IMG/VR virus record: IMGVR_UViG_3300024344_000002
Span: 9,325-73,324 of that record
Length of the DNA stretch: 64,000 bases
Strand: one strand, 5' to 3'
Source: a virus
Part shown: positions 23,915 through 46,500 of the stretch, one piece after another
How the letters are laid out: each line of letters opens with the position of its first letter
Position numbering within the stretch: position 1 is the stretch's first letter
Position numbers and translations under genes: made by a program
Notes under the pieces: generated by a model
Seen by the model: only the letters and a program-made list of their open reading frames with translations
Told to the model about the DNA's origin: nothing
The model's database searches: none

Positions 23915-23952
23915 AACTTAGAAAACAAAACTCACTTTTGGGAGAGATTATA

Positions 23953-25080
23953 ATGGCAGCAAATAGAATTTACTGGGCTATTACTGCGCTTAGTACTGCT
24001 CCTGAATCTACTGGTGCAGCTGGTCCGGGTGGCGAAAAAGCCATTACCGCAGCCAACTTTGTGCCGGGCGTTCAGAGTGTCGGTATTACTACTACATTTA
24101 ATCTAGAACAGGTTTTTGAACTTGGTCAATTAGAATTGTACCAAGACGTTGAAGAAGTACCTGATATCGAAGTTTCTGTAGAGCGCGTAATAGATGAACA
24201 TATACTTTTATATACTAGGTGTGTAGATCCTGCAACACCAAGTGGCAATAAGACTATTTCAGCAATCCAAAACAATAAGGTGGATGTATTTATGAATGTA
24301 CATCCAGACTCAGCCGATAATGCTGGTGATAGTGTACCAGATGCTATCGTTCATTGTTCTGGTATGTATTTATCAAGTGTTTCATTTAACATGGCAACTG
24401 ATGGTAACTTAACTGAATCTATTACTCTTGTTGGAAACCACAAGAGATGGAGACAGGGTAAGGCGCACGAGACTGGTACAAATACTCACTGGAGTAGCAA
24501 AACTCCATTCGTAGTAACTGATGTTCCTCGTGGTATGCCTACAGCTACGAACATTGATGCTAAAGCAACTGGTGCTGTTGTAAAACGTCGTCAAAACGTT
24601 CACATCACACCTCCTGCTAGTGCTGGTGGTTCAGATGCAAAAGTTACAAGTGCTAGTGTAAGTTGTGACTTTGGTCGTGAACAAATTAATGTTCTTGGCG
24701 CTAGACTGCCATATCATAGATATGTTAGTTATCCTGTTGAAGTTACTTGTGATTTGGAAGTTGTAATTACTGATATTAATGATCAAGGTATTACAGCTTT
24801 GCCAGAGTCTGACAATCTTAGCGAAGAAACTCTTAAGTTTGAAATTAAAGACGACGCAGGAGTTGCAATTGCTACTATTGACCTTGGCACTAAAAACAAA
24901 CTTACATCTGTTACTTGGGGCGGTGGAGATACTGGTGGTGGTAATGCTACCTTTAGTTACTCATACCGTAACTTTAACAAGATGGATGTTCACAGTCATA
25001 AAACAACATATAGTATTGTTGAATGTGGCGATGACGCCAATAAGAATGTTACTGACTACACAAGTTCTATTAGTTGTTAG
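23953..25080 (+). CDS. Major tail tube protein
   Basis: GVQSVGITTTFNLEQVFELGQLE and a second domain with SASVSCDFGREQINVLG. Own promoter, SD (GGAGAG) and a downstream hairpin. Confidence 0.7.
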   Translation: MAANRIYWAITALSTAPESTGAAGPGGEKAITAANFVPGVQSVGITTTFNLEQVFELGQLELYQDVEEVPDIEVSVERVIDEHILLYTRCVDPATPSGNKTISAIQNNKVDVFMNVHPDSADNAGDSVPDAIVHCSGMYLSSVSFNMATDGNLTESITLVGNHKRWRQGKAHETGTNTHWSSKTPFVVTDVPRGMPTATNIDAKATGAVVKRRQNVHITPPASAGGSDAKVTSASVSCDFGREQINVLGARLPYHRYVSYPVEVTCDLEVVITDINDQGITALPESDNLSEETLKFEIKDDAGVAIATIDLGTKNKLTSVTWGGGDTGGGNATFSYSYRNFNKMDVHSHKTTYSIVECGDDANKNVTDYTSSISC

Positions 25081-25240: not shown

Positions 25241-26275
25241 ATGGAATTTTATGAACGGGATTTTTTTGTATCAAGGCTACTAGCCGGATATGTAAAACTA
25301 GACTTCAAAAAGCTGAAGCTCTATGTTCATCCACCTACTCCTGAAGTTAATTATGAATCTCAGGAGATTTTTATGGAAGCTTACGAAGAAGCTTTTATGT
25401 CGGGTGTTTTCACAAGACAAGAAATGCGCAACTACATGCTTCAAAACGGCTTGTGGTCAAAAGCGGAAGAAAAAGAAAAAGAAAAAGTAAAAAAAGAAGC
25501 AGAAGATTTAAAAATACAGCTTTATAAAAACTTTGTAAACCCAGTAAAGAAAAAAGCAATAAGAAGCTTGATTAGGGAAGCTGAACAAAAATTATTGAAT
25601 CTAGCAATAAAGGAGTCAACGTATAATCATACTGACTGTGAAGGTTTAGCGACCTATGCAAGATTGAATTGGTTAACGCAGAATACAACAAAAAATCTAG
25701 ATGGTTCTTTGTATAGTTTTAATGAAATTGATGTATCAAGTGTATTAAAAAGATATCAAGCAGAACTGTTAGATGATTTAGAAGCAAGGGAGATAGCTAG
25801 GACTGAACCTTGGAGGAACAATTGGAATAGCTCCAAATATACCAACGGGTTATTTAATGTGAGTTCTCCAATACAGTTAAACCAAGAACAAAAGTCGGTT
25901 TTAGCATATTCTCAGATGTACGATAATATATCTGAATCTCATGAATCACCAGTTGATGACATTATACAAGATGATGATGCTTTAGATGGCTGGTTAATAA
26001 AACAAAGAAGAGAATCAGAAAAAAGAAAGAATCAAAAAGGAAACGAAGACAGACTTGGCGCACATAGTGGAGCTGACGAAGTCTACGTTATTACAGAAGG
26101 AAAAGAAGAGGCCGAAGCTGTATACGATATGAATGATGGCGAAGCAATGTACAATGTTTCTGAGCGATTTGCCACTTTGGAAAGAGATGGCGAAATTGAC
26201 TACACGGCTTTTGGGGATGTTAAAAGAAGACTAAATGAGCAAATGAATGACATGATGAAATCAAGGAGAGGTTGA
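25241..26275 (+). CDS. Putative tail assembly chaperone
   Basis: Helical charged protein between tube and TMP. IIQDDDALDGWL. Confidence 0.45.
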   Translation: MEFYERDFFVSRLLAGYVKLDFKKLKLYVHPPTPEVNYESQEIFMEAYEEAFMSGVFTRQEMRNYMLQNGLWSKAEEKEKEKVKKEAEDLKIQLYKNFVNPVKKKAIRSLIREAEQKLLNLAIKESTYNHTDCEGLATYARLNWLTQNTTKNLDGSLYSFNEIDVSSVLKRYQAELLDDLEAREIARTEPWRNNWNSSKYTNGLFNVSSPIQLNQEQKSVLAYSQMYDNISESHESPVDDIIQDDDALDGWLIKQRRESEKRKNQKGNEDRLGAHSGADEVYVITEGKEEAEAVYDMNDGEAMYNVSERFATLERDGEIDYTAFGDVKRRLNEQMNDMMKSRRG

Positions 26276-26676
26276 TGGAAGAATCATACGCAGAACTTGT
26301 CAGAAAATCTGATAAGTTTAAAACAGACAAAGATAAAAAGTACAAAGACGTTTCAAAAGATCGTCTTTTAAAAATATCCAAGAAAAAAGTTCAAACAACT
26401 ATGATTGGCGCTTTAAGCACAATCGAGCGAGTTTTTGGTTTTTTATGGGGTCATGGTTCTCAAGAAGAACTTACTCCAGAACAAGAACACATGAAAGAGC
26501 TTTTTGAAGAAGTTAGATCGGAAATATTGGACAGGGGCAACAATCAGTCTAGAAATCTCGAAGCTGAATTTGCTAATTATGAAATTAATTGGTTGAGGTA
26601 TCAAATGACGTTACCCGTTAAACCACTAAATACATTAGAAGGAGATAAAGATGGCCAAGCAGAAACAGCTGGATAA
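26272..26676 (+). CDS. Hypothetical protein (tail assembly region)
   Basis: SD GGAGAGG, overlaps both neighbours. Confidence 0.55.
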   Translation: MMEESYAELVRKSDKFKTDKDKKYKDVSKDRLLKISKKKVQTTMIGALSTIERVFGFLWGHGSQEELTPEQEHMKELFEEVRSEILDRGNNQSRNLEAEFANYEINWLRYQMTLPVKPLNTLEGDKDGQAETAG

Positions 26677-27592
26677 GATCGAAGTAAAAAGTGTTGACTC
26701 AAGAGGTAAAGACAGAACTGTTTATCTTAAACTACCTGACTCGAAAGTAAATAAGGAAGCTCAGTTAGCATACAACAAGGCTTTCCGAAATGCACTTCAA
26801 GACGGCGCAATACTCAGACAAAAACTGAACAGCGTCATGAGAGAGCAAGGAGTTTGGAGTGACAAAAAACAAGACGAATACGATAAAGTACTCAAAGAGA
26901 TTAATGATAGCGAACTAAGAATTAAAAAGGGTGGTATTTCACTTGCGGAAGCTAAAAAAGTGGCAATGTCCCTTAGAGATCTTAGAGACCGCTTCAGAGT
27001 GCTTATTGCAGAACGATCTTCGATGGATAGTAACACCGCAGAAGGCTTAGCAGATAATGAAAGATTTGGTTATCTAGTCTATGCTTGTTTGGTAAACGAA
27101 AAAGGTCATAGACTTTTTGATGATTATGATTCGTATCAAACAAACGAAGCAGAACCATTTGTGGTGGAAGCAGCTGGAGCTTTGGCAGAAAAGTTGTATG
27201 GATTAGATCCAGACTACGATAAAAATTTACCAGAAAATAAGTTTTTAGTTGATTATAGTTTTGCTGATGAAGAACTAAGACTTGTTAATGAAGAAGGCCA
27301 TCTAGTTGACAGAGAGGGTAGACTCATCAACGAAGACGGTAGATTCATTGCCTATAATGATGACGGTGAACCATATTTTATAGACAAAGACGGTAAACTA
27401 GTTACTGAAGATGGCGAATACGATATTGAATTTTCACCATTCTTGGACGACTCAGGAGATGCAGTTCCTGTACCCGGCCAAGAAGAAGAAAAGAAAGAAG
27501 AAGAGGAAGAAGTCGCTGTAGTAGAAGAAAAGCCTAAACCTAAAACTACAAGACGACGCAGGACAACTAAGCAAAAAGCAGATACCGAATAG
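26651..27592 (+). CDS. Putative tail assembly chaperone with (D/N)xxG hairpin repeats
   Basis: SD GGAG. The N-terminal half resembles 25241..26275 (AFxxALxxG...MRxxGxWS). NEEGHLVDREGRLINEDGRF repeats. Confidence 0.45.
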   Translation: MAKQKQLDKIEVKSVDSRGKDRTVYLKLPDSKVNKEAQLAYNKAFRNALQDGAILRQKLNSVMREQGVWSDKKQDEYDKVLKEINDSELRIKKGGISLAEAKKVAMSLRDLRDRFRVLIAERSSMDSNTAEGLADNERFGYLVYACLVNEKGHRLFDDYDSYQTNEAEPFVVEAAGALAEKLYGLDPDYDKNLPENKFLVDYSFADEELRLVNEEGHLVDREGRLINEDGRFIAYNDDGEPYFIDKDGKLVTEDGEYDIEFSPFLDDSGDAVPVPGQEEEKKEEEEEVAVVEEKPKPKTTRRRRTTKQKADTE

Positions 27593-27657: not shown

Positions 27658-30600
27658 ATGTCCGACAAGTTTCTTTTAACAGCACAATTACACTTACAAG
27701 CCCCTACTAATACAAAACAGGTATTGAAACAGATTCAAAACCAGTTGAAAGGTGCTAATGTAAATGTTCAACTCAAAAATGCTAAGCAGACTGTTACTCA
27801 GTTAAAGCAGACAGCTAAACAACTGCAAACTGTACAAAAACAAGCTAAAGGTGCTGAAACTCAAATGGACCGGCTTGGAAAAGCTTTCGGTCAAACTTTA
27901 AAGTATATTGTTCGATACGACCTTGCTCGTAGAGTTTTTAGTCTATTTACAAATGCTATTGAACAAGGTACTAGAGATGCTATAGCCTTTGAAAGAGAAA
28001 TGGTAAAAGTTTCTCAGGTTACTGGCAAGTCAATGAGGCAACTTTCTGGCCTTACCAAAGAAATTGGAAACCTTGCTAAAGCATATGGTACTTCATCTGC
28101 TCAATTAGTAAAGACTGCTCGTGTTTTGTCTCAAACAGGTATGGCTGCTAGAGATGTAGAAATGGCTATGAAGTCTTTAGCCAAAAGTACATTAGCTCCA
28201 ACCTTTGACAATATTACAGATACTGCTGAAACTGCTATTGCAGCTATGAGGCAGTTTAGATTGGAAGCCAATCAGTTAGAGGGTCTCTTAAATAAGATCA
28301 ATGTTGTCGCCGGTAACTTTGCTGTTGAAGCTTCTGATATTGGTGCTGCTATTAAGCGTGCCGGTGGTGCGTTTGCTTCTGCTGGTGGACAAGTAGAAGA
28401 GTTCATAGCACTCTTCACTTCTGTCCGTGCTACAACGCGAGAAACTGCTGAAACGATTGCTACTGGTATGAGAACTATCTTTACCAGAATACAAAGACCT
28501 AAAACAATACAATTTCTAAAACAGTTTGGTGTAGAGCTGCAAAACTTAGAAGGTCAGTTTATTGGGCCTTACCAAGCTGTAGAACAATTAAACAAAGCTC
28601 TAGCTGGTCTAGACCCTAAAGATGTTCGTTATTCAATGATTATTGAACAGCTTGGTGGTTTTAGACAAGTTTCTAAAGTTATTCCACTTATTCAACAATT
28701 TGGTACTGCCCAAGATGCTTTGAATAAACAAATGTCTTCCCAAGGAAGTTTGTCCGCAGATGCTGCCAAAGCTCAAAAAACTCTTGCTGTTCAGATCGCC
28801 CAGTTAACTGAAAATGTTAAAGAGCTATTTAGAAATATAACTTCCTCTGCCACTTTTCAAGTCCTTGCTAAAGGCGCTGTTGCATTTTCTAATGCTATTG
28901 TAAAAGCCGCTGATGCTATCTCTGGATTGATACCTATTCTTGGAGCCTTGTTTGCTGTTAAAGGTATGAAGTGGTTAATGGGAGGAGGTATGTCAACGAT
29001 ACTGGGTTCTGGTGGTGGAAGACCTAGACCCTATGGACCTGCACCTCAAGGATTTAGTCAGGGTGGTTGGGTTCCCGGAACTGGTAGTGGTGATACTGTA
29101 CCAGCATACTTAGAACCGGGTGAATTTGTTATTCGTAAACGTTCTGCTCAAAAACTTGGTCCTAGATTAAACTCTCTTAACAAGTATGCTGGTGGCGGTG
29201 TTGTTTCTGCAAAACACACCGGGACGGTAGATGGCGATACTTATAGAGCAACTTTGAGAAATAGTGGAAAACCGTATAGTAGTCGTACTAGACTCAAAGG
29301 TTATGACGCTGCTGAAATGCCAATTGAGCGTGAGAAAGAAATATGGAAAGCGCATGGAATAAATCCTGATACTGATCATCCGGGTATCGTAGCTAAAGGC
29401 ATAGCAGAGAGTTATGCTAGCAAATTAACTCCTAAAAAATTCACAGCGATGTTTACAGGTAAAGATGGATCAGGGCATGGGATGGGTGCTTTTGATAGAC
29501 CTCATTATAAAGCTGACGATCTTGGTGAACAGCTAGTAGGTGCGGGAGTTGGTGCAAAAGGTAAGTTTAGTATTTATGACTGGCTTGTAAAAAATAAAGG
29601 GCAGAAGAAAGCAGACGCTATAGTGAAGGCGGGTAAAGCAACTAAGGATAAAAGTGTTCGTTCAAGAGGAGATAAGTACAACAGAGGCGGTAAAGTACGC
29701 GCTCCTAACTCTTTGTTAACTCCCGGTGAGTTTGTTGTTAACAAAAAGTCTGCTAAAAGAATTGGTTATGGCACGCTTGGCTCTCTGAATAGATATGCTG
29801 TTGGTGGTGTGGCAGGCGGTGGCTTAGGATTCGCAGGTGGTGGACTTAACGCAGAACAGGCTCAAGCGTTAATTGACGCAATAACAAAACTAGTTCCTTC
29901 TTTTGAGAGACTACAACTAGCTACTGGAAAAGTTGGTGATGTTTTTGAGGCCACAAAAAATGCAGGAAAAGAATTAACTAAATTTGCCGCTTCTACAGCT
30001 GAAGCTGGAGCTGAAGTTGGTCTACAGTACGCTAAGTTTAAGGCTTTTGGCGGTGCTGTTAATGCAGGTCTAGATTCTATAGGTTTGCAGAATACTGCTT
30101 TTGAATCTCTCGTAGATACTACGTTTCAAGTAAAAGCTAATTTAGCCGCTATGGGTGAAGCAGCCAATCAACTAAAAGGTGACTTCGGAGATGCTGCTCA
30201 AGGATTTTTTGAAACTTTAGCTGGTAGTGGAAAGCTAGGCAAAAAAGCTAAAGGGTTTGCAGAGGGTGGAGGCATTGGAAAGATTCGAGATAGGCTTACA
30301 CAAGATGCAGAAGCTGCCGGTAGGTTTGGTGTGGGTGGCAAAGGATCTAGAGATGCTCTAAAAATGGAGCAAGAAAAACTTCCACAGATGCGAAAACAGG
30401 TGGAATCAAAACAAAAAGAATTAGACGCATCAAATAAAGCGTTAGAAAAAGCTAAGCGCGCTCAAGCATATAAAGCTCCCGGTGACACTGGAAAGCTAGA
30501 CAGAGCGAGATACGAACAACAACAAGCTCAAGAAAGCTTAGGTAAAGCGAAAGGTCGTGTAGCTGGGGGAGAAAAATCAGTTAGAAAAGCGCAGATGAAG

Positions 30601-33600
30601 GGCATGGCCATTCAAGCTGCTGCTGCTTTAGCTACTAGTGTTGGTAAAAAACTTGAAGCTACAGGAATGGCCGCAGCAGAGGCGGGTGAAGGAACTGGTA
30701 TGCAAGCTGCTGCTGGTAGATCTTTAGGAATGGCTGGACAGGGTGCGCAAATGGGTGCTATGTTTGGTCCTATGGGTGCTGCTGCTGGTGCTGTTACCGG
30801 TGCGCTTATTGGTTTTGTCACAGGTCTTAGAGATGCTAAGTTAGCTCTCGCAAAAGCAAGACTTGGCGAAGTTATGGAAGACACTGCTGAAACGATGCAA
30901 AAGTTCCGTGATGGAACAGCAACAGCAGCTGAAGTGCAGGCAAAATTAAATACGCAATCTACTGCTATTGATGATTTTAAGGCTGAAGGAATGGGGGGAT
31001 ATGCTGGAAGCACTGCTGGAAATAATGCAACGAATATTGTTGCCGGAGCGACTTCTGGTGCAGCTATTGGTGCGGCTATTGGAAGTATCGTTCCTATCTT
31101 TGGAACTGCTGCTGGTGCAATTGTCGGTGGTATCACTGGTGCAGTTACTGGTTTCTTCGCGGATTGGGCAGGACCAGACACAGAAGCTGTCACTGCTGAA
31201 TGGGCTAAATCAACGCTAGAAATGCAGAAAAATATAAAAGAATTCCGAACTGGCGTTATTAATACCTCTAAGTCTTTTTCACAATTTGAATCTAATTTTG
31301 GAAGTGAAAATATAGATAGAATTGCCAAGATGGAGGGCAAGACTAGACAACAAGTAGTAAAAGAAATAACGAAAGAAATAAACGAAAGGAACAAACAAAG
31401 AGAAGCAGCTGAAAGACTAGTTGAAGCTCAAAATGAAGCAACTAAACAAATGATTAGGATGCAGCAATTGGGTCAAGTCTTTGATGAGCTGTCTTTTAGA
31501 ATGGAAGGTTTTGGTAATGTACTAGATGGATTATCTAACATCACCGGAAGTGTCAAAATAGGATCTATAGGTTCAGCTCTTTCTGACGAAAGAATGGCTT
31601 CTAGAGATCAAGCTTCAAGAGATAGATATACAGGCAACGTTGATGCACTCACTAATATGGCTGGTGAGGGCGACATGGGCTTAAAGAATTTTGCAGATAG
31701 TGCAAAGGGTGGCGCAATACTATCTCAAGAACTTGGAAGAGCCTTGACTATGAATCGAAAAGGCATTGGTGTTACAAGAAAGTTAGACGACGAAGGCAAT
31801 ATGTCTATCGTCGAAGGTAGCTTCGCTCAGAATGTAATGGACACCATACCTAAAGAGCTTGCCGATAAAATTCCACCGGATATGTACGATCAGGTTAAAG
31901 ACAACATAGCTGACATGGTTGTCGCTGAAGGTGGTTTAGAAAACCTACAGAAGAAGATACAAGAAGATCCAGATGCTCTAGTGAAAGAGCTTACAGGCGG
32001 ATTGACTGAATCTAATAAAGCGTTTGAACAAGCTGGTAAAATGCTTGATTCTCATAATGCTAAGCTCCAAGAAGCGTATGCTAAACGCAACTCAATGGAG
32101 ATGAGCTTTATAAAAACTCTACAAGATTTAAATACTCGTAGAGCATCATTAGTTGCCGATGACAGGGTGAGAAGAGGCGGTAAAGGAATGAGTACCGCAG
32201 AAGCTAGGGCTTTAGACGCTAAAAACAGAGGCGTAGCCATGAATGCAGTTTCTGCCGGTACTATGGCTTCAACTGGTTTAACAGCTGGTTCTGGACCAAA
32301 AGAAATTGCTAAAGCTATGGCTAAAGTTCGTGAAGACATAAAACAGAGCGATGAACAATTAGCAACCCAAGGAGTGACGGGCGTTGGTATGGACTCTTCG
32401 CAGGGGTTGGCTGATTCACAAAAAGATCTAATAAAAGCGAACGCAGACTTAAAATCTGATTATGAAAAACTGCAAGGGGTTATGCAGCAATATGCTTCTT
32501 CTCAACAAGAGATGATCGCTCTTAACAAAGAGTTAGAGCAGCAGCAAAAGAAACAAAAGACATTAGAGCAATTAGCTGAAGATATGGCTTTTGGTACTGC
32601 TGAGCAAAAAGGTGAAGCCGCCAAGGTGATGAATGAGCTTGCTAAAGCTAAGACTATGGGAATTGGCGCTGTAGATCCTGAATATCAAAGACAAATAGTA
32701 GGTCTTCTCAAACAAACTGGTAACGAAGACTTAGTTACTTCAACTATAAATCAAACCGCAGCAAATGCTGGAGTAATGTTAGATCCAAAGACTGGTGGTA
32801 TCAAAGGGGTGACAACCGCTAGCGATAAACGTAATGAAATTGCTGACAGGATGAAAGAGCTTGACGAACAAGGTCTAGCAGCCGCAGAAGGTTTAGCTTC
32901 TGAAGAAGGTCAGATACTAGCTGACTTCTCTGCTGGTATTGAGTCTCTTCATCAGAAGTTCTTAAGTGAACTCTTTAACATGTTAGCAGAAGCAAGAAAG
33001 AGAGAGTTAGAAGATAGAAAAGCCGACTTAGAAGCAGAACAAGAGGTTACACAAAAGCAGTTAGACTTCTTCGGAAAAGATGCAGCTGCTGCCTTGGGAA
33101 TAGAAGATATAAGCAAGCTCAAGTTCAAAGATGGAGATACAGAACTTACTGGAGCTGCTGCTATGGAAAGAATTATTCAAGGAGGATTTCTGGGGCAAGT
33201 CACTCAAGCTCAAAATATACAATCAAATATGGCAGGTAACCCTCTCGCAGCAGCTGTCATGGGAGGTATGGGAACCGAAGTATTAGATGACTTCCGTGAC
33301 GGAAGCCATAATGCCATTCTTGAACAGCTTGGAATTACGGCAGCGGATGTTTACTCCACAGGATCTGACGCAAATGAAGATACTGACTTAGATGCAGCTA
33401 ATACAGATATGGCGCAGCATATAGCAGCTAGAATGGGAGAAGAGCTAAGCAAAGCAGGTTTTGATATTGATGGTGATACGCTACAAAAAAGATTGCTGGA
33501 CAGACTTTCACCCGAAAAAATGGAATCTCTTGGCGGCTTTGACTTTGATGATTGGATAAGTGGTCAATTAGAAGCAATAGGTAGAGGCGCTAGAAATCAA

Positions 33601-35349
33601 GTAAAACTCACTGGCAAGAATCAAGAAGCTCTTCAAGCTTTACAAGGGGCTAATGCTACAAACTTAGGTTCAGGTGCGCAGTCCCAAATAGACAAACTGC
33701 AAGCAGAAGCTGGCATCGAAGCAGGCATACAATTTGACATAGGCAAAGCAAACGAAGAATTAGATAAATCTATTGAGAAGCTTGCTACTACAGTCAATGA
33801 AATGGCTGACCTTGATAAAAAGACAGGAGCCAAAAAAGTTGAACAAGCCGAAGCTGAAGCAAAGATTGAACAAAAGAGACAAGAAGAAAACAAAAAAGTA
33901 ACAGATCAAATCAAAGGTGATACAGGAGTTCCAGTAGCTTCTGTTGGTGGAAGTGCAGCACCAATAGCTGCTACAACATTTAATGCAAGTCCAATAGTAG
34001 GAATGAAACAGGATCTGCCAACTCCTATGTCATTATCAGACATGCCAGATGGAGAGTGGGTAGGGCCTTCATTAAGTCAAACTGGACCCGAAGCAGAAGC
34101 AAAAGTTATAGCTCAAGAAATGACTAAACAGCAGAGCATTGCTCCTAGTGCTGCAAGCGGAGGAGGAGCATCTTCGTTTATCAGTAATATGGGTAAAGGT
34201 TTATCTAATGCACTTTCAAAGGGTAGCGAGTTAATTTCCCAAGTAGACCCAACAAGCATGAAGAAGGCTATGGTAGCTGCTCAGTCATCAAGTAGACGCG
34301 AAAGATTAGCCGAACTCAAAGAACAGATAAAAGGTACTACAGAACAACAAAGTAGATTTAAATCCATTCACAAAGAGGGAACAAGCACGAATATGCTTGA
34401 AACTCTGAATAGCTATAATCCGATGACGGGGTTTGGCATGATAGGTCCGAATAGTGACTTCCAAAGCAAAACTGGCATGAGCAAAGATTTTGTTGAAAGA
34501 GAGATGGGTAAAGGTGCAGAACAATTAAAGGGTCTAAAAGCAGAACAAGCATCTTTGTTAGCTGAAGAAAAAATGGCAGCAGAAGTAGCTGCACAAGAAC
34601 AAGCAGCAGCAGACGAGGCTGCAAAGTTTGAACCTTTGATTCTAGCTATTACTGACGGTAGCTTGGCGATAGTAGAAGCGATTGAAAATTCTGCTATGAG
34701 CGCAGAGCAAAAAAGAGCTGAGGCTGAACAAGCAGCCCAAGAACAAGCAATCGCAGAACAGACAAAGACTCCAGAGCAATTAGCTCAAGAGGCGGCAAAG
34801 TCAGCATCAATGTCAACTGCGCAATCACAAGTAGATAGCTTGTCGAAATATGGACTAAACACTGGAATATCCACTGCTTCTAATACACTAAGAAGAGAAC
34901 AGGAAAGACAAGCAGCAGAAGCAGAAGCTGTTAAGAAACAAGAAGAACTAGCAAAACAATTAAAGAATGGAGCGGGAGATGCCTTAGCTCAAGCTGGTGC
35001 GAGTGATCTAACGCCTGATCAACAAAAACAACTTTCCTCAAAATTAGAAGCGCCGGGTTCAGAAGGGTTATTGTCAGCTCTAGGTGTTGAACCATTACAA
35101 GAGCAAGTAGAAAGACTTGGTTCTATATTTGAAAATGCGCTTCAAGTTGAAGTTGGTGGTACTATAGATGTAAACGTTAATATGAATGGTGCTGAAGCAT
35201 TAGCGAATGCTGAAAAAGCATTTGGATCATTAGCTTCTAAGAAAGCTACTGATGCAATAAATAACTTTATTAGTGAAATGAATAAAGGCGGCAATAACGC
35301 AAGACCTAAACAGAAGGAAAATTGGACTGGTAATGGAGAGGCAAGCTAA
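27658..35349 (+). CDS. Tape measure protein (TP901-type core) with embedded SNase-like domain
   Basis: Core motifs FEREMVKVSQVTG, AVEASDIGAAIKRAG and IATGMRTIFTRI. Long helical A/Q/E-rich body and glycine-zipper segments. Confidence 0.9.
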   Translation: MSDKFLLTAQLHLQAPTNTKQVLKQIQNQLKGANVNVQLKNAKQTVTQLKQTAKQLQTVQKQAKGAETQMDRLGKAFGQTLKYIVRYDLARRVFSLFTNAIEQGTRDAIAFEREMVKVSQVTGKSMRQLSGLTKEIGNLAKAYGTSSAQLVKTARVLSQTGMAARDVEMAMKSLAKSTLAPTFDNITDTAETAIAAMRQFRLEANQLEGLLNKINVVAGNFAVEASDIGAAIKRAGGAFASAGGQVEEFIALFTSVRATTRETAETIATGMRTIFTRIQRPKTIQFLKQFGVELQNLEGQFIGPYQAVEQLNKALAGLDPKDVRYSMIIEQLGGFRQVSKVIPLIQQFGTAQDALNKQMSSQGSLSADAAKAQKTLAVQIAQLTENVKELFRNITSSATFQVLAKGAVAFSNAIVKAADAISGLIPILGALFAVKGMKWLMGGGMSTILGSGGGRPRPYGPAPQGFSQGGWVPGTGSGDTVPAYLEPGEFVIRKRSAQKLGPRLNSLNKYAGGGVVSAKHTGTVDGDTYRATLRNSGKPYSSRTRLKGYDAAEMPIEREKEIWKAHGINPDTDHPGIVAKGIAESYASKLTPKKFTAMFTGKDGSGHGMGAFDRPHYKADDLGEQLVGAGVGAKGKFSIYDWLVKNKGQKKADAIVKAGKATKDKSVRSRGDKYNRGGKVRAPNSLLTPGEFVVNKKSAKRIGYGTLGSLNRYAVGGVAGGGLGFAGGGLNAEQAQALIDAITKLVPSFERLQLATGKVGDVFEATKNAGKELTKFAASTAEAGAEVGLQYAKFKAFGGAVNAGLDSIGLQNTAFESLVDTTFQVKANLAAMGEAANQLKGDFGDAAQGFFETLAGSGKLGKKAKGFAEGGGIGKIRDRLTQDAEAAGRFGVGGKGSRDALKMEQEKLPQMRKQVESKQKELDASNKALEKAKRAQAYKAPGDTGKLDRARYEQQQAQESLGKAKGRVAGGEKSVRKAQMKGMAIQAAAALATSVGKKLEATGMAAAEAGEGTGMQAAAGRSLGMAGQGAQMGAMFGPMGAAAGAVTGALIGFVTGLRDAKLALAKARLGEVMEDTAETMQKFRDGTATAAEVQAKLNTQSTAIDDFKAEGMGGYAGSTAGNNATNIVAGATSGAAIGAAIGSIVPIFGTAAGAIVGGITGAVTGFFADWAGPDTEAVTAEWAKSTLEMQKNIKEFRTGVINTSKSFSQFESNFGSENIDRIAKMEGKTRQQVVKEITKEINERNKQREAAERLVEAQNEATKQMIRMQQLGQVFDELSFRMEGFGNVLDGLSNITGSVKIGSIGSALSDERMASRDQASRDRYTGNVDALTNMAGEGDMGLKNFADSAKGGAILSQELGRALTMNRKGIGVTRKLDDEGNMSIVEGSFAQNVMDTIPKELADKIPPDMYDQVKDNIADMVVAEGGLENLQKKIQEDPDALVKELTGGLTESNKAFEQAGKMLDSHNAKLQEAYAKRNSMEMSFIKTLQDLNTRRASLVADDRVRRGGKGMSTAEARALDAKNRGVAMNAVSAGTMASTGLTAGSGPKEIAKAMAKVREDIKQSDEQLATQGVTGVGMDSSQGLADSQKDLIKANADLKSDYEKLQGVMQQYASSQQEMIALNKELEQQQKKQKTLEQLAEDMAFGTAEQKGEAAKVMNELAKAKTMGIGAVDPEYQRQIVGLLKQTGNEDLVTSTINQTAANAGVMLDPKTGGIKGVTTASDKRNEIADRMKELDEQGLAAAEGLASEEGQILADFSAGIESLHQKFLSELFNMLAEARKRELEDRKADLEAEQEVTQKQLDFFGKDAAAALGIEDISKLKFKDGDTELTGAAAMERIIQGGFLGQVTQAQNIQSNMAGNPLAAAVMGGMGTEVLDDFRDGSHNAILEQLGITAADVYSTGSDANEDTDLDAANTDMAQHIAARMGEELSKAGFDIDGDTLQKRLLDRLSPEKMESLGGFDFDDWISGQLEAIGRGARNQVKLTGKNQEALQALQGANATNLGSGAQSQIDKLQAEAGIEAGIQFDIGKANEELDKSIEKLATTVNEMADLDKKTGAKKVEQAEAEAKIEQKRQEENKKVTDQIKGDTGVPVASVGGSAAPIAATTFNASPIVGMKQDLPTPMSLSDMPDGEWVGPSLSQTGPEAEAKVIAQEMTKQQSIAPSAASGGGASSFISNMGKGLSNALSKGSELISQVDPTSMKKAMVAAQSSSRRERLAELKEQIKGTTEQQSRFKSIHKEGTSTNMLETLNSYNPMTGFGMIGPNSDFQSKTGMSKDFVEREMGKGAEQLKGLKAEQASLLAEEKMAAEVAAQEQAAADEAAKFEPLILAITDGSLAIVEAIENSAMSAEQKRAEAEQAAQEQAIAEQTKTPEQLAQEAAKSASMSTAQSQVDSLSKYGLNTGISTASNTLRREQERQAAEAEAVKKQEELAKQLKNGAGDALAQAGASDLTPDQQKQLSSKLEAPGSEGLLSALGVEPLQEQVERLGSIFENALQVEVGGTIDVNVNMNGAEALANAEKAFGSLASKKATDAINNFISEMNKGGNNARPKQKENWTGNGEAS
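29200..29676 (+). other. Staphylococcal nuclease (thermonuclease)-like domain inside the TMP
   Basis: TVDGDTY, TRLKGYDAAEM, AFDRP and LGEQLVGAGVG align by eye with SNase-family DGDT, RLxxxDxPE, xYGR and NxxLVxxGLA. Confidence 0.7.
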
Positions 35350-37953: not shown

Positions 37954-40523
37954 TGCCAGTTACTATAACAGATACTAGAACAGACCGAAAAAACTATTTA
38001 ATTCCTGCACCTTTTGTCAATATAACAAAAAACTTTGACAAACAGGGTGATGGTGAAATTATAGGTGCTACGTACAGCATAACACTAACAGGTACTTTAT
38101 TAGCTGATAGAGGGTCTCCTTTAAATCACCTAGGAATTGACACTCTAGGTATTAAAGCGGACGTATTGGCCGGTAAAAGAACTGGGTTTATTGACGACCA
38201 AATTATGACCACCCTTGTTAGCCGTGCAGCGCCTTGTAACTACAAAGACTATATACACGGTCATTGCGGTGCTGCAAATTTGGGAGAAGAATATTACAGA
38301 GCATTGCAAGTAAAGCAAAAAGCTTTATTGAATATGTTCAGTAAACTTAATGAAGGTGCTTTGTTAGAAGTAAGTCCTCCAGAAGAATCTATGGATCCTG
38401 ACGTTGACGGGTTTAGAGCTTTTGTAAAATTTGAGTCTATAGACATACCAGCACACAATCCCGGAGACCCTGTTAAATCTCAATATACTATTAATCTTAA
38501 AGCTGATTATCTTGTAGGCCCAAATGGGCAGATAGACCAAGAAGACTGGGAAAATTTAGGTAGATGGCTAGTATCTTCAGCAAGCGAAACTTGGGATATA
38601 GCAGAGATTGATGGAAAACATGTTGTAGAAAGAGCAGATGGTACTAGTGGTTATGAAAGAAATGCTTTTAACAGAAATGATAATGCATATGAAGACATGT
38701 CAAGAGACATGCATAATGGAGAAGCTGTAGGTCATCATAAAGTGTATACTTTGACACATACTATTTCTTCAACTGGTAAATCTAAATTTGATAGAACAGC
38801 GAATAATGCAGCTGGAATACCCGGACATAAAATAATGGACGATGGTAACTATATTGAGAGTGGATCTATAGAAAATCAAAATGGAGAAAATGTAACAACT
38901 GGAACATCTAGCACAAAAAGTATAAAAGATGGATTCAGTTCTATGTATGCACCAAATGGAAGAGCTTGGCAGCAGGCAAGAGGTTTTGTATACGATGTAA
39001 TCAAATACGGAGAAAGGTTTTTAGCTGGTGATAATGGAGCTTTTGTTGACAATGCTGCTAGCACTACTTTAAAAGAAAATAGCACAAAAACTACTGAAGT
39101 TGATTATGACAATTATGACACATTTGGAATGAATCTACCTAAAAAGTCAGATGGAAGTCATATATACAAAGCATACAATTATAAAAGAACACAAAATGTA
39201 GACAAAAGAGGAGGATCTTTTAGTGTAACAGAAACTTGGACTCTTGCTCCAGAAGATTTTTTGGCGCTAGAAAGTTTTGATGTTAGCATTTCCGAGTCTG
39301 ACCAAGCAGGCGGAATCATTGAAGTGAGCATCAATGGAACAATAGAAGGTCTTTTAAACAACGCTGTAGATAACAGTGCGGCTGACAATAACACGACCGA
39401 CGATAAAGAAAAGTCAATGCTCACAGATACAACGCAAGACTCAAGAGAGACTAACGTTGATATAACTGGTAAGGGTACAGAAAAGGCCGTAGAACTTCCA
39501 GAGCCGCATCACGGGGTTATGGTTTATTCTAAGCATGAAAACGCAAAGCTGCATTACAACACTAAAGTGCAGCCTAATCTCTATAACACTGCCCAGAAGA
39601 TGATTGATGATTTGTTTGGTTATGAACAAATTGGATATGCAGGCGTAGAGGATGGAGATGCATGGACCGACAAAGGTCTTATTGTTAATCCTCTTCCAGT
39701 AAATAAGAGTATAACTCAGCAGCCCGGAACTGGAACAATAACGTATAATTTTACTTTCAGTACTAAACCAATTGGAAACATACCGTTTTGTAGTAATGAA
39801 ACTATATCAGTTTCTACTAACTATCCGGGAATGGTAGTTGCTCAACATCAAGTAATAGGTAGACCATTAGGTCCGGTTCTACAAAGTCTTGGAACTCAAA
39901 CGGCAGCAACAAGAAGTTTAAGCTTAAGTTGTAATGTTGATGTTAGAAGAAAATATTTGTGTATTGATAGTTTGTACTATACTGTACATCCATATTCAAA
40001 CTCAGATGCGTGTACTGCTGCTAAAGGACCAGAAGGTCAATCTTTAATATGGATAAAGAATCCTAACTATGTAAACACTAGAGCTTCTATTCATGGCACA
40101 GCTACTGCTGGAGCCAATTATGACGCATTGAGACCAAGAGCAACTGAAGCTATGTCTAGTGCTAGACCAAGCACTCAAAGAAATAGCTATTGGGGTACTA
40201 CTGCTGTTGAACCAAATGCAACTTATAAATTATCTCAACACAATGGAATAGCTCGAATAGTAAGTTCTTTTGATCCTTTTGCTTATAGAACTTTGTACGA
40301 TTCAGCAAACAAAAATTATACTGCTCATTATAGAGAGCATGGTGTTAGAAAATCGTACCATGATGCGCCTAGTGAAAGTTGGGATCCTACAACTGGAGCA
40401 TGGAGTTATAGTATTACTTGGACATACGAAATGGATGATCCATACACCCAACCTTCAACAACTTACTTGAACGGGGCAAATGCAGATGCATCGGCTTCGC
40501 CTTGGCCGGGAGATGAGATGTAA
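37953..40523 (+). CDS. Tail tip/distal tail-like protein
   Basis: YSITLTGTL, GSFSVTETW, GTITYNFTF and ESWDPTTGAWSYSITW beta-rich hub-like repeats. Position after the TMP. Confidence 0.5.
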   Translation: MPVTITDTRTDRKNYLIPAPFVNITKNFDKQGDGEIIGATYSITLTGTLLADRGSPLNHLGIDTLGIKADVLAGKRTGFIDDQIMTTLVSRAAPCNYKDYIHGHCGAANLGEEYYRALQVKQKALLNMFSKLNEGALLEVSPPEESMDPDVDGFRAFVKFESIDIPAHNPGDPVKSQYTINLKADYLVGPNGQIDQEDWENLGRWLVSSASETWDIAEIDGKHVVERADGTSGYERNAFNRNDNAYEDMSRDMHNGEAVGHHKVYTLTHTISSTGKSKFDRTANNAAGIPGHKIMDDGNYIESGSIENQNGENVTTGTSSTKSIKDGFSSMYAPNGRAWQQARGFVYDVIKYGERFLAGDNGAFVDNAASTTLKENSTKTTEVDYDNYDTFGMNLPKKSDGSHIYKAYNYKRTQNVDKRGGSFSVTETWTLAPEDFLALESFDVSISESDQAGGIIEVSINGTIEGLLNNAVDNSAADNNTTDDKEKSMLTDTTQDSRETNVDITGKGTEKAVELPEPHHGVMVYSKHENAKLHYNTKVQPNLYNTAQKMIDDLFGYEQIGYAGVEDGDAWTDKGLIVNPLPVNKSITQQPGTGTITYNFTFSTKPIGNIPFCSNETISVSTNYPGMVVAQHQVIGRPLGPVLQSLGTQTAATRSLSLSCNVDVRRKYLCIDSLYYTVHPYSNSDACTAAKGPEGQSLIWIKNPNYVNTRASIHGTATAGANYDALRPRATEAMSSARPSTQRNSYWGTTAVEPNATYKLSQHNGIARIVSSFDPFAYRTLYDSANKNYTAHYREHGVRKSYHDAPSESWDPTTGAWSYSITWTYEMDDPYTQPSTTYLNGANADASASPWPGDEM

Positions 40524-43500
40524 TGTCAACTGTCTATACTTATCCATTACGAGAAAGAAATATAAACGAATCCATCCTCCCTTACTATTCAGGAGATACG
40601 GGAGATGATGGTTTTGTTATTTTTCAACAGACTTTTCTTGGGGCTTCTATAAGTCAATTTGCATTAAATTTAGGTTTTAATGGAAATTCTTCCACCCTCA
40701 ATGTTAGTCTCGTAGAGGACGAATGGAATTTAGACAGTAAGATGACTGCTAATACTGTAAGAGATGCAATTACAGAAGGTTATCATCATTGGGATCCTAC
40801 TGCTTTTCCTGTAGGTCTTGTTAGAGACAATGGTAGGCAATTAGGCTTGGACCCTTTTGTTGCTGGTGATAGATCAAGCGTTGGTACTCATGTTTATAGA
40901 AATGGAAACAATCTAAATTTACCAGCCGGAGACTTATTCTGGGCGACAACACCCGGAGAGCCAGTTTATTTCAGGTATTATGATGGTGCTAGACTTTCCT
41001 CCGCTTGTGTATCAAATAGAACTTGTGCAAATTCTAATACTGGCGATGCTTCTACAAGTCCTCTAACGTTTGAGTTTAATGGAATATTAAAAAGCTATAA
41101 AAGAGATTGGAGTGGAAATGGTCAAACTTATAGCGTAGTTGTAGAAGACCCAAGAGTAATACTAGAGAATACTACTGTAATATTAGATTCTTTTCAGGGT
41201 CATACAGCACCAGCTGATGCTTGGTATATGGATCAACATTATCATCCAAACGAAAAAGCGATAACTCCTAAAGAAACGCTTGAAGCTCTTGGACAAGATG
41301 CAAAGTTTCAAAGAAAATTTGAAGAGGGTTATAACGGTTATTATAACGTAGTAAATGTATTTGGATATTATGAGGAAGCTGGAGGTTTTGGTCAGTCTGA
41401 CACGAATGAGCATGGGATACCTTGGTTCGCTGCAACGGCTGATTATATTAATGCTTGGGGTTATAAACATAATAAAGGCATATTGCCAGCATTAGATATG
41501 ATTCTTTCTGGAACTATGAAAGAGTATATAAAAGATGAAGAGCCTTATGGTGGCCCTCTTTACTATGGTTTAAATTCTAGACCTACTACTTTTGGCTCAA
41601 GTACTTCTTACGAAAATTCTCCAACTGGATTTCCCAATAACGCAGGAGTCCATAAGTACGCCATAGACCTTAGCCCGTTGTACAACTTAAACAACATTTA
41701 CAACCCAACACCAAAAGACGTTGACTATGGTGATAGTATTGGGATGGGTACTGTTGGTGATGATTTTAGAATAAAAGGTACAAAAAATTTATTGCAATTG
41801 ATACAAGAAATTTGTACAGCCGCTGGCGCTGACTTTTTTGTAGACTTGTACGTTCCTAGAAATGGAACTGGTAATCCAGCAGAACAAAAATTGTTTGATA
41901 TGCACAAACATAAAGCTGGAATCATAAGAGTTATACCAATACCAAAAAATGCAGACATACAACCGGGTATTATAAAAACAGTATTAGATCAGTCTCTCTT
42001 TCTAAAGATAGGTCCTTGGGCTGATAAAATAATTAGTGCTGATGTTGGTTATGAACATACAGATCCTACAACTGGAATGTTTACCATAGGCGCTCCATTG
42101 ACCAGAGTTATTGGAGTTTCAATGACCGGAGGTCAAAGATCTAAACCTTCTGACAATTGGAGAGGGAAGGGTAAGATACTAGGTAGTAGACGTAGAGAAG
42201 ACTTCTTCTTCAATAAAGATACTGAAAAGTATTTCGATGGTGATGTTGATCCAGAACGCGATGATGTTCTTATAGATTCAGGTCCTTTTTTAGAATTAGA
42301 TGGCGCTGCACTTCAAGGCTATGCAACCACTCTTTATGACGGTCATATGTGGGGCGTATGGCGACATCCTAGCAAGAGAGACGCAGATGGCGATTTTTCA
42401 CATTTCAAGGACTACAATGCTGATTGGGGTGGGAAAAAAGGAACTATTCCAAACTTCTTTGACGCAGTTGATGGCAGACCTATTCTAAAAGATGAAATAG
42501 CTGATTTAGTAGACAATGATTATTTTGATGCTAGGCCAGTTCCTATTGGTCGTTTGAAAATGGGAGCGGATAACAACAACAACGGCGTTATAGTAAATAA
42601 AGTTGATCCATTTATGTTCAACATACCTAACAATAAAGATGTTGACAAATGGTTCACAGAAAATAGCGGCGACTATGAAGGAGTACCAGACAAAAACCCA
42701 AGCCTATACGATAACGAGGGCAATGAACTTGAATGGCCTCAACATCCTATGGATGGTTATATAGATTTGTTTCCAGCTTGGGGATTTACTTCAAAAAGAT
42801 TTGTACAAAAGTCTGAATTTGGACAACAAATTGATATACAAACAAAAGGGGAACCTATCATGGGTATGTTCCATGATGATGACCCTTATAGAGACTTTCA
42901 TCCTTACGATGGTCTTTTTGGAGGTATAGCGTTTTTCAATCCCGGTTTAGGTAAATGCGTAAGTAAACCAAAATGTACTTATAGCGATGGGTCTTATGCT
43001 ACTAAAGAAGGCATAGAAAATGGCGAGCTTTGCAATACTAAAGAATCGTGTGAAGCTGGATACAATAATACAAGAAGTTATTGTGATAAAGGTCAATACA
43101 ATAATCAAGGTGATTGTGTAAACAATGGTGGTACATGGTACAGCAACGTAAAAGATCCGGGTTGCAATGGGCCTAATGAAAAAGCATCTACTTGGGATGG
43201 TGGTATGCAACCAAAAACAGCTTGCGATAACATGCCTGAAATTTGTCAGTGTGATCCAGAGCAGGAGTTTAAAGACAATGGAGGTGAAGATCCAGAAAAT
43301 GAATGTACTACAGCTAGAAATGGTCACCCAATAGGATGTGCTGGAATATTTAAATATGATTGTATTCCTTGGGCTAATTGTGTTACTTCGGCTGGAGACT
43401 CTATTACTGGAAGCATACCCGGTGCGCCTCCGTTAGGAGCTGGTTTATATTTGCCCGGTTCAGATTGGGGTCGTGACGAGTGGTCTTGTACGCAAGCTTG

Positions 43501-46500
43501 TTTTCAAGTTGAAAATCTAGAAGCTTTGACTCCAGCAGATAGGCAACAAAGAACAAATATAGACGTTAAAGGGGCGACTGTTGGAGATTTATTAGAGACG
43601 GCTCCTGTGCTTGCTGTAGATGAGAACGATGAACCAGCAGATTTAGGTGCTGAGGGTAGAAAGTTAATTAATAAGCCAAGCCTATGCTCCGCTTTGGAAG
43701 AAAAAGATTACACTGGTTACATAGACGGTGGTAGTTCAGGAGAAAGAGTTCCTGCTTGGGTAGGCGCTGTGATGTATATAGATTCTACCACAGGACATCC
43801 AAGCCCTAGTCAGTCAACAGCTAGATTAAATGGAACACAAGGAAATAGTTTTGAAGGGAATGACAATGGTCCATACGCTGAAGATTGTACTTGGAGAAAC
43901 TTCCGACAGCCTAACGGAGGTTGGTGTAAAGACAATGATACCAACGATCACGCTTTAGGTCATACTGGATCTCATAGGTATACAAGAGAAGATGTAGATC
44001 AAACTTTTAATACTAGAGCAGAATGTGAACAAACATTAGTAGATGAAACTATAGTAAATGATGATGGTAGTTCAGTTACTAAAGGTGTAAAAAGAGAAAG
44101 AAGCGAGAATCCGCAATTATATGGTAACTTTGAATGGATAACAAAAGTTTGGGATCCGTTATGCACAAGAGCAGAACCAAATACTCCCGATGCAGTAGAT
44201 CCAAAGAAAAATAACCCCGGTCCGGGATATATCAATCCAGTTGTAGCACTAGAAGGTTCATGTACAGATCCACAATGGACTAACAGACAAGACTGTGTTG
44301 GACTGGGAGAGACATGGGATCAAAAGAAAACAGCAGGCTCAAGAGACTTAAAAGGATTCCCTAAAATACCAAACACTGCTACTATTCCTGTAGATTTGAG
44401 TAGTACTCAGTTTGTTGGTTTTAAAGGAGGTCCATCTAGTATAAATATAGACAACGCTAGTGGTTACTATATGGCGACGGTCACAGAATTGAGACATGCT
44501 TCTATAGGTTTTGACAACTACTTCAACTATTTGAGAGTTTTCCAGCCTTTCTTGCCATGTTATTATTGCCAAGCTCAAGGTGGAAAATGGTGCAACTACT
44601 GCCCTACAGAAGCCAACATTGCAATGAACGGAATTACTCCTGAGCAAGCAGCAGGGTGGCAAAACCTAGCAGCTATGGGTAATGACAAGCCAATGAACCC
44701 AATTGAAGATGGTCTTTCAAGGGGTACAGACGAAAGAGAAGGTCAAACAGAAGCAGGCTTAGTTTGCGGAAGAAAGAAAATAAAATGGAACGAATACGAA
44801 GCATCTGGCGTGACAATGCAAGATGCATTCAAGAAAGTTCAAGACTTAGCAAATAATTTCTACGGCAGAAAGTATTTAATGCCACTTCCTTTTAATCCAC
44901 CTACAGTAGTTGGATGTGCCAATCCTTGGATTGAAACACAGGCAGAATGTGAAGAAACAAAAAGCACTTGCTTAGATGATATGGGAAACATAATTCATCA
45001 ACTAGACGATGACGGTGATTATATAGTGCCATTCGTACCCGTGACAGATGAGACTGAATGTGGACAACGGAATGGTGTATTCTCAGAAGTTGGTGGTTTT
45101 GATTGGGGCGCTCATGGATTGTTGAGTGAGTGGTTTAGAAAATTCGGAGTAGGTACTTGCAAGAAGGGGGCTGGTAGTGAAGAAGTTGTTGCTTGGGTTC
45201 CAGATAGAGCAGAATGTGAAAAAATCAAAGGAATTTGGATAGACCCATTACAAACAGAACAAAAATGGGATATCGTTGGTGCTGGATGGCCGGGAGAAGG
45301 TTATGACCCAGATTGGGAAAAACAGACATGGATGAATACTACTTACCCACAAGATGTAAACTTCTGGGAGGGTGGCAACTTAGCATCTTTTGTAGCTTTT
45401 CCTCATAAAGAAACAAGAAGACTGCAAGGAGACAAGGTAGATTTAAATTTTGGCGACATTGATCCAGAGAGAATGTCTAACCCAGACGAAAGGATGTTTA
45501 CCCGTGAGGAACTAGAAAAAAATAAACATCACAATAATATTCACAAAGGGTATACAGGTAAAGTTTTTGTTAGAGCTGATGTTGACCCTAAAACTTATTG
45601 GTTGAAAACTAGACCAATGTGGGAACTTTTACATGCTAAAACATATCCTATTAGAAGCCCCAAACACAGACAGCCAAGGCAAGCTCCTGAGTTTATTAAA
45701 GAAAGTAGGAAGTTACTTACTAGAGATACTCTTCATAAGTATATTCCTCAAGACGAGAAGTGGCGAGCAGACGAATTAACTGAGTTCGCATTTTATAAAC
45801 CTTATGCTTTGATTACCATCCCGAATGCTGTTAGATATGGTCATGTAGATTATGCAAAAGCTGTTGATGATATGGGTGAGGGTGAAATTTGTATACCATT
45901 AATACATCATAAAAATTCAAATTGTTTGCAAAGAGCTTGGGCTAGATCTAGTGGTGTTAGTCCAGAAATAGCTGCGTGGCAAAACTTGGCAGCGTTTGGT
46001 AATGACACTTTAACCCATCCAATGATAGCTCCTGATGGATCTAAGAGCCAGATTGCAGATGCTGCTTATAAACCTTTTTATGCTGGAGTTCCTCAACAAA
46101 GTACAAGATACACTTGGGGTCCTTGGGCTATAGGAACTGGATTTGGCAAAACAGAGTATAAGCAAGATACTTCTCTACATCCTGCTACGTTTGGTAGTGA
46201 AAGAGAATTGAACCGTTTTGCACTTGCTCAGGCTAAAAGAGCTTTAATACAGCAACAAAACACACTTGAAACTGGAACAGTTAGTTTAGCTGGTTTACCA
46301 ACTTATTTTGCTGGCACTCAGATAATGCTTACGATTGCTGACGGAACAGACGCTAATGGCAATCCTGCCTTTAAGCAGGTACAAGGTCCATATGTAACAG
46401 ATGTCAATGTGCAAATAGGATCTGGAGGTGTTACCACTACGTATAATCTTACTACTGCTAGAAAGTTTGGAGATCTTTCGCAAAGAAATGAAGAAAGAAT

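Follow-up and report, generated by a model that had tools for sequence, protein, structure and literature searches.

A polymorphic slot between conserved modules of a giant phage tape measure protein holds a predicted SNase-type domain

Phage tape measure proteins (TMPs) are mostly seen as rulers and channel formers, and the enzymatic parts already known in them are cell-wall hydrolases, such as the hydrolase part of the mycobacteriophage TM4 TMP, and one RNA polymerase. Polymorphic toxins fused to the MuF proteins of phage heads were reportedly described by Jamet et al. in 2017. Excerpts of PMC7302621 describe fusions of MuF to a VIP2 ADP-ribosyltransferase in Microbacterium phages. In Thermus phage P23-45 the N-terminal TMP part, within gp96, is described as a virion RNA polymerase responsible for transcription of the pre-early genes (PMC10770324, in excerpt), and in lambda the TMP product gpH* is described as exiting the tail to form a trans-envelope periplasmic channel (PMC12617516, in excerpt). 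Here we analyse a 64,000-nucleotide stretch (the window; positions 9,325 to 73,324 of IMG/VR record IMGVR_UViG_3300024344_000002), which comes from a 73-kb record of an uncultured marine phage with an estimated completeness of 48%. The window contains, on the + strand, a TMP gene in one uninterrupted frame of 2563 residues (27658-35349), whose product holds, between two related modules, an insert that on profile and model evidence is a divergent SNase-superfamily domain keeping every catalytic residue.

The domain lies at 29206-29598 (+ strand, residues ~517-647), as delimited by invariant alignment columns, a profile match in the Protein Data Bank (PDB) and an AlphaFold2 model. An earlier interpretation, referred to here as the sequence-only reading, had drawn the globular insert over residues ~515-673; a globular domain is indeed predicted between the modules, but its folded part stops near residue 647 and is followed by a Lys-rich helix or linker (29599-29658, +, residues 648-667), modelled as a helix in which the predicted local distance difference test (pLDDT) score falls to 55-69, and which is the stretch least conserved against P0003, the nearest of the homologous TMPs. 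The motifs quoted in that reading were all found at their places: FSQGGW starts at residue 466 (nucleotide 29053), PGEFV occurs at residues 487 and 689, DGDT at 525, RLKGYD at 545, FDRP at 612 and YNRGGK at 674, and LNRYAVGG ends at residue 717 (nucleotide 29808).

The insert family was collected by a local iterative hidden Markov model (HMM) search among related TMPs, which converged at 27 sequences (alignment A1). D525, G526, D527, R545, D550, E553 and R614 are invariant in all 27 aligned inserts; the catalytic set is encoded on the + strand at 29230-29238 (D525/D527), 29290 (R545), 29305 (D550), 29314 (E553) and 29497 (R614). Since DGDT recurs twice in the same TMP, at residues 1825 and 1938, the motif alone is uninformative, and the weight lies in the invariance of the catalytic positions throughout the family. 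When the A1 profile was compared with 177,635 PDB sequences, nine rows were obtained at E≤10, all of them SNase variants (best E 0.0031). The best alignment covers SNase residues 16-110 and superposes the invariant columns on D19/G20/D21, R35, D40, E43 and R87, at an identity between insert and SNase of 15-20%. In this HMMER alignment, D527, D550 and E553 coincide with the Ca2+ ligands and catalytic residues D21, D40 and E43, and R545 and R614 with the phosphate-binding R35 and R87; the D-G-D, R...D..E and later Arg elements in which an SNase active site had initially been recognized are therefore all present and in register with SNase. The connection is visible only with the 27-sequence profile and not with a single sequence. 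A phmmer search of the PDB with the insert alone gave aldolase rows only, at E>0.6, which were dismissed as chance matches, and phmmer against 1.84 billion representatives gave four matches, namely a 200-residue protein and three TMPs or TMP fragments.

The AlphaFold2 model built with A1 shows strands followed by helices (mean pLDDT 90.6, predicted template modelling score 0.83). All 50 of the matches listed by Foldseek against the PDB are SNase entries (best E 2.6e-4, TM scores 0.45-0.55). In a VIA-align search of 48,161 representative chains, 1sta ranks first (Z 8.6, r.m.s.d. value of 4.6 Å for 110 aligned residues), and the first 15 rows hold nothing but SNase, Tudor-SN and Tudor/extended-Tudor entries; extended-Tudor domains include an SN-like fold. 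Among the viral models of BFVD, the named matches in rows 3-11 are thermonuclease-like proteins, joined in rows 12, 14 and 19 by a few baseplate hub proteins that carry a domain of this type. Model, Foldseek and VIA-align all point to an SNase-type fold, in agreement with the OB-fold that the sequence-only reading had anticipated. The abundance of Tudor-SN and extended-Tudor proteins among the structural matches, in which SN-like folds act as binding modules, would also suit a domain that handles the phage's own DNA, gripping or trimming the leading genome end in the tube or piloting the genome into the cell. We consider this quite unlikely, since SN-like domains that only bind usually lose their catalytic residues, here invariant in 27 of 27 sequences, and since the alternative cargos described below, one with a nuclease-type motif and one an ADP-ribosyltransferase, fit an enzymatic effect on the host and not a grip on a DNA end. 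In its favour, published tails are described as having the DNA end in the tube touching the head-proximal part of the TMP (PMC11445458 and PMC12617516, both in excerpt).

The two junction modules that bracket the domain are encoded on the + strand at 29047-29220 (module 1, residues 464-521, FSQGG...DTVPAYLEPGEFV...LNKYAGGG) and 29659-29817 (module 2, residues 668-720, YNRGG...LLTPGEFV...LNRYAVGG). Both match a module HMM seeded with 415 copies from 121 TMPs (that of the window and 120 homologues), with E values of 2.5e-24 and 1.4e-15, respectively, and they match each other in BLASTP with 15 of 29 residues identical (E 4e-8). The module consensus extends over ~55 residues and reads FAxGG - (PGxGxx)DTVPAMLTPGEFV - xxxAAxxxGxxxLxxxN - xxYAxGG; module 2 is a shortened copy that lacks the 'G.GxxDTVPA' strand (alignment A3). 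In the model of a homologue, P0118, the module folds as a β-hairpin followed by a helix, with pLDDT values of about 70-80. Four of the seven [FY]xxGG boxes of the TMP stand at module edges. No repeat is found between the two modules at the DNA level, and their duplication is therefore old.

Although two related modules do bracket the insert, as the sequence-only reading had it, these duplicated flanks are not specific to this gene. The A3 profile matches mycobacteriophage Douge gp16 twice (residues 961-1028 and 1409-1472, E 1.2e-17), lambda gpH once (residues 728-786, E 4.3e-5) and JBD30 gp46 once (residues 1016-1088, E 1.6e-4), so that the flanks represent one case of a general and widespread TMP joint; at least 526 stretches in IMG/VR encode the module. 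One tblastn lead, Synechococcus phage SynMITS9220M01 (MT408532.1), taken at first for a module with half an SNase, was rejected as such, the protein consisting of a module and a cell-wall hydrolase of family PF07486. In this T4-like cyanophage the module-hydrolase protein (L002, 2044-4020) adjoins the baseplate hub genes and sits where T4 has gp29. The occurrence of the module thus extends beyond siphovirus TMPs.

The domains held between modules differ among related TMPs. Of 8000 word-filtered candidates compared with residues 441-760, 564 TMPs matched at E≤0.001, and the best 120 form the census reported here, in which the segments between modules were cut out and classed by local HMMs, slot 1 being the segment between the first two modules. 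All 120 homologues carry 2-6 modules. An SNase-like domain is present in slot 1 of 25 of the 120 and in no other slot, and a second, unrelated family accounts for 69 slot-1 and 3 slot-2 segments (29 by a conservative count, taken at iteration 7 of the search); the two never occur together in a segment. ADP-ribosyltransferase-like domains are found in 11 of the 120, always in slot 1 and in 8 cases together with the second family. Pfam places the ADP-ribosyltransferase PF03496 within slot 1 of P0050, P0087 and P0103, and in the last of these (slot at residues 511-789) an SNase-like domain and PF03496 (residues 689-780) stand side by side. Twenty-four slot-1 segments have no family assignment. 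In two other TMPs, P0078 and P0028, Pfam identifies a lytic transglycosylase domain (SLT) that lies between modules together with three peptidoglycan-binding repeats (PG_binding_1). A second sample, 79 IMG/VR loci retrieved independently by module pattern, yielded 79 open reading frames (ORFs) with modules, of which 2 contain SNase-like, 27 second-family and 6 ADP-ribosyltransferase-like domains. The slot between the modules is polymorphic, a conserved carrier holding non-homologous domains at a fixed boundary, and the suggestion that homologous TMPs would differ at this site is thereby upheld. The layout of polymorphic toxins is not matched, as the cargo is internal (residues 517-647 of 2563) and does not form a C-terminal tip with an adjoining cognate immunity gene.

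The second cargo family is, firmly, not homologous to the SNase cassette. In an alignment of 20 members (A4), one Glu and one Asp never vary and are followed by a (D/E)-x-(K/R) position, which gives a PD-(D/E)xK signature. The model of P0118 residues 468-741 (pLDDT 72.7, with 80-90 in the core) shows the order helix, three strands, helix, strand, which fits an α-β-β-β-α-β core. Most of the 43 VIA-align rows obtained with this model are restriction-endonuclease-like by title (FAN1, Hjc, tRNA-splicing endonuclease, CdiA-CT, FokI), with a best Z of only 4.2, and Foldseek gave nothing at E≤0.001. A profile of the domain alone against the PDB returned noise (best E 0.66), as did Pfam for each member, and a search for free-standing relatives in the 'near' length band found two short proteins only. 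The family HMM expanded from 16 to 72 sequences in 14 rounds, in which drift is possible, although the members printed carry the motif. Signature and predicted fold make a nuclease of the PD-(D/E)xK type probable, with even chances or a little better.

Pairwise comparisons suggest how the slot came to vary. P0026, with an SNase-like cargo, and P0089, with a second-family cargo, are 92-100% identical over residues 1-520, fall to 15-20% over residues 521-689, and return to 92-100% from residue 690, remaining mostly above 80% up to about residue 2000. The same drop between modules is seen in the pairs P0011/P0086, P0007/P0113 and P0047/P0075. P0026 and P0089 come from separate sources and represent 6 and 14 member sequences, respectively, which argues, at the level of this protein comparison, against an assembly chimera. 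P0003 and the window TMP are 98-100% identical in the modules and N-terminal region, and 52-82% in the insert, the catalytic half being best kept. A backbone tree was calculated with FastTree for 114 rows from all residues that precede module 1, leaving out 7 rows in which the first module lies before residue 400 or beyond residue 720 (N-terminally cut forms; P0028, P0078, P0114). On this tree the distinction between SNase and second family requires 12 changes, against a mean of 20.6 (range 17-23) for shuffled labels, and the starred branches make at least 10 switches of the SNase label unavoidable. The tree gave long-branch warnings, and given these limits of FastTree the pairwise identity profiles are weighted above the change count. 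Taken at the sequence level, the comparisons indicate that near-identical TMP backbones swap cargo and that the breakpoints coincide with the modules. P0026 and P0089 differ in a second mosaic block as well, at residues ~2048-2290, where identity is 8-32% amid 98-100% and no module stands at the edges; at least one more segment of the TMP thus appears exchangeable, with different boundaries.

Sites of homing endonucleases typically show such a picture, two unrelated nuclease-type folds alternating at a single position with sharp breakpoints, and it might be accounted for here by a selfish, homing-type cassette that cuts empty or other alleles in co-infection, with the modules as homology arms and any benefit to the phage secondary. 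Nuclease genes have been reported at boundaries of phage genetic exchange (preprint 10.1101/2023.03.23.533998). Homing is nevertheless a very improbable explanation here. The cassette lies in frame within an essential structural protein, without intein or intron features, and Pfam scans of TMP and cassette sequences found no LAGLIDADG, HNH or GIY-YIG family. Moreover, SNase is not sequence-specific, and cargos that are not nucleases, the ADP-ribosyltransferase and SLT domains, occupy the same slots.

Taken together, fold, slot and exchange lead us to favour, at slightly better than an even chance, a TMP that carries an exchangeable SNase-type cassette in its N-proximal quarter and is expelled to attack host nucleic acid, with the modules serving as joints; in more general terms, the tail probably brings an exchangeable ready-made enzyme into the host. 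The TMP would occupy the tail lumen, C terminus towards the tip, be expelled on infection and become a DNA conduit, and the cassette would ride within it in the lumen, probably unfolded or staggered. In solved tails the TMP C terminus is placed at the tail tip (PMC11445458, in excerpt), and a cassette in the N-proximal quarter should consequently leave late, among the last parts of the TMP to come out and just before the genome. The insert would then act as a Ca2+-dependent nuclease, cutting host nucleic acid at the very onset of infection, in the service of host takeover or counter-defence. The RNA polymerase of P23-45 gp96 shows the cytoplasmic face to be within reach of an enzyme in the N-terminal part of a TMP, and the ADP-ribosyltransferase cargo, which requires NAD+, points to the cytoplasm as well. 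This precedent, together with an NAD+-requiring cargo in the same slot, favours a virion-borne nuclease directed against host nucleic acid. The modules may provide flexible joints and, being strongly conserved, homology arms through which co-infecting phages exchange cassettes. More tentatively, the giant TMPs of many uncultured phages could form a polymorphic effector-delivery platform resembling Rhs, contact-dependent inhibition (CDI) and type VI secretion (T6SS) systems, in which cassettes are swapped and the chain is cut at the joints, free enzymes preceding the DNA into the host.

Release of the cargo by cleavage finds an analogy in the known TMPs that contain the module. Lambda gpH matures to gpH* and gpHC by a cut placed close to the module region, of which the exact site and catalyst are not known, and a hydrophobic stretch and a glycine-rich region precede that region (PMC12617516, in excerpt). 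In JBD30 gp46 a cut at residue 1066 is predicted by the authors of the structure (PMC11445458, in excerpt), and this residue falls inside the module-matching stretch 1016-1088. A comparable order is found in the window TMP at residues 407-521, where a Kyte-Doolittle scan locates a hydrophobic segment (28876-28989, +, residues 407-444), with a Gly-rich stretch after it right ahead of module 1. By their position relative to lambda and JBD30, the modules may mark TMP processing sites that free the cargo, possibly as cut sites akin to that which converts gpH into gpH* and gpHC.

Several observations weigh against the delivery of a nuclease to host nucleic acid by this TMP. With regard to the domain itself, Pfam assigns no family at E≤1 to the insert of the window, and a single one of the 27 family members touches PF00565, at E 0.053 and below its gathering threshold; fold and active site match but the threshold is missed, and the domain is therefore filed at the level of the SNase superfamily only. 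The structural likeness is moderate, as seen in the TM scores given above and in Foldseek r.m.s.d. values of 7.8-12.7 Å over about 150 columns, the latter inflated by the trailing helix of the insert. Searches for free-standing homologues of the cassette turned up none that would name a source gene, the profile search in the 'near' length band returning one 155-residue fragment within a reach limited by the word index. The slot census rests on the best 120 of 564 matches. As to the modules, they lie outside the built part of all three solved tails, in which only the last 30-40 TMP residues are modelled, and the window TMP, unlike that of lambda, has no module near its C terminus, which makes the lambda analogy for cleavage indirect. 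Delivery raises difficulties of its own: three or six folded domains of 130 residues fit poorly into a lumen of roughly 4 nm, and a non-specific nuclease beside the end of the phage's own DNA would be a hazard that needs explaining. Finally, SNase-type enzymes normally require millimolar Ca2+, which is absent from the cytoplasm.

The Ca2+ dependence of SNase chemistry speaks for action in the envelope or outside the cell, and the nuclease might accordingly work outside the cytoplasm, remaining after TMP expulsion at the cell surface or in the periplasm, where Ca2+ at the level of seawater would permit SNase chemistry. There it would clear periplasmic or extracellular nucleic acid or aid passage through the envelope, comparable in this to the peptidoglycan hydrolase cargos of other TMPs. 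SNase-type enzymes are secreted as well as Ca2+-dependent, the relatives come from marine surveys (TARA names), and envelope enzymes use the same kind of slot, as with the SLT and PG_binding domains of P0078 and P0028 and the PF07486 hydrolase of the cyanophage. However, the NAD+ requirement of the ADP-ribosyltransferase found in the same slot, once together with an SNase-like domain (P0103), leads back to the cytoplasm, and in the usual TMP orientation an N-proximal domain exits last, adjoining the DNA. We therefore regard extracytoplasmic action as unlikely, and attack on host nucleic acid by an exchangeable, expelled cassette remains the reading we prefer.

The features of the TMP and of its surroundings agree with its assignment. 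Residues 139-334 (28072-28659, +) match the phage minor tail/TMP domain PF10145 (PhageMin_Tail) with a Pfam E value of 3.3e-27, and the protein matches the tape measure families phrog_28, 4211, 1533 and 4704 of PHROG. Glycine-zipper and hydrophobic segments at 30751-31170 (+, residues 1032-1065 and 1124-1171) are a candidate membrane-inserting part of the TMP, and likely constitute the portion that enters the membrane; glycine zippers in TMPs are discussed in the available text of PMC10240207. The gene stands in a + strand run of structural genes, with a tail-fiber-like gene upstream and the next gene beginning at 35356. On the basis of the PF10145 and PHROG matches, the great length, the hydrophobic and glycine-zipper segments and the tail gene block, the 2563-residue protein is assigned as a giant siphovirus-type tape measure protein.

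Among the neighbouring genes, three ORFs of 344, 134 and 313 residues lie at 25241-27592 (+), between the TMP gene and a 380-residue ORF at 23938-25080. Two of the ORFs directly ahead of the TMP gene, 26272-26676 and 26651-27592, overlap in different frames, at the usual spot of frameshifted tail assembly chaperones. A PHROG search gave no function for these three ORFs or for two ORFs that follow the TMP gene. Two more giant ORFs, of 2025 (40523-46600, +) and 3403 residues (48412-58623, +), are present downstream of the TMP gene. Amid the structural block, the segment 10821-16808 (+) contains modification-type genes encoding a PF13469 sulfotransferase-like protein, two PF13578 methyltransferases, a PF05637 glycosyltransferase and a WavE-like lipopolysaccharide synthesis protein (PF07507); judged by these families, they may serve glycosylation or other modification of virion proteins, or remodelling of the host surface. 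A 138-residue protein (6873-7289, +) matches PF23140, 'Podophage GP4 fiber I protein gp80' (E 1.8e-37), a podophage-fiber match alongside a TMP that speaks for a long tail.

The literature searched contained no description of a nuclease or an ADP-ribosyltransferase inside a TMP, nor of cassettes being exchanged at a conserved joint of the protein. If the proposed delivery is true, the tail lumen would be a second route, besides the head, by which ready-made and fast-evolving weapons enter the cell, a point that would matter for host takeover and counter-defence and for understanding the great size of some TMPs. The conserved joint, present 2-6 times per giant TMP, offers a handle on the old question of how and where lambda gpH is cut.

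Among described systems, the insert is closest in fold to the SNase/thermonuclease superfamily (PF00565; 1sta, 1sty, 1snc), with which it shares in the model the OB-type barrel and helices and, in the alignment, the active site. It differs in lying below Pfam detection, at 15-20% identity, in being embedded in a structural protein of 2563 residues, and in having no free-standing relatives among the sequences searched. An SNase-like domain on a virion protein was noted in 2007 in the BtI1 homologue of 0305phi8-36 gp147, on a tail baseplate hub that meets the cell first; that protein is a hub and not a tape measure, and cassette exchange is not described in the available text (PMC2147016). With respect to the carrier, lambda gpH (8iyk; PMC12617516, in excerpt) has the same module, preceded by a similar hydrophobic and glycine-rich order, and is cut near there and expelled as a channel; it has, however, only one module, which lies near the C terminus, and carries no enzyme, whereas two modules of the window TMP surround an N-proximal enzyme. 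T5 pb2 is cleaved, with pb2C proposed to reach the periplasm (PMC12617516, in excerpt), and would share with the window TMP an enzyme in the TMP that is released on ejection, although TMPs of this type target peptidoglycan and not nucleic acid. P23-45 gp96 is likewise a giant TMP, of 5,002 residues, whose N-terminal enzyme works on nucleic acid as infection begins, but its cargo, an RNA polymerase, comprises about 1,200 residues and has demonstrated activity, and the available text describes neither a swappable slot nor PGEFV modules (PMC10770324). The MuF toxins of phage heads offer a parallel to the polymorphism itself, being conserved virion proteins with variable toxin-type domains that include ADP-ribosyltransferases. 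Their cargo is C-terminal on a head protein, whereas the cargo of the window is internal to a TMP, with the repeated module on both sides.

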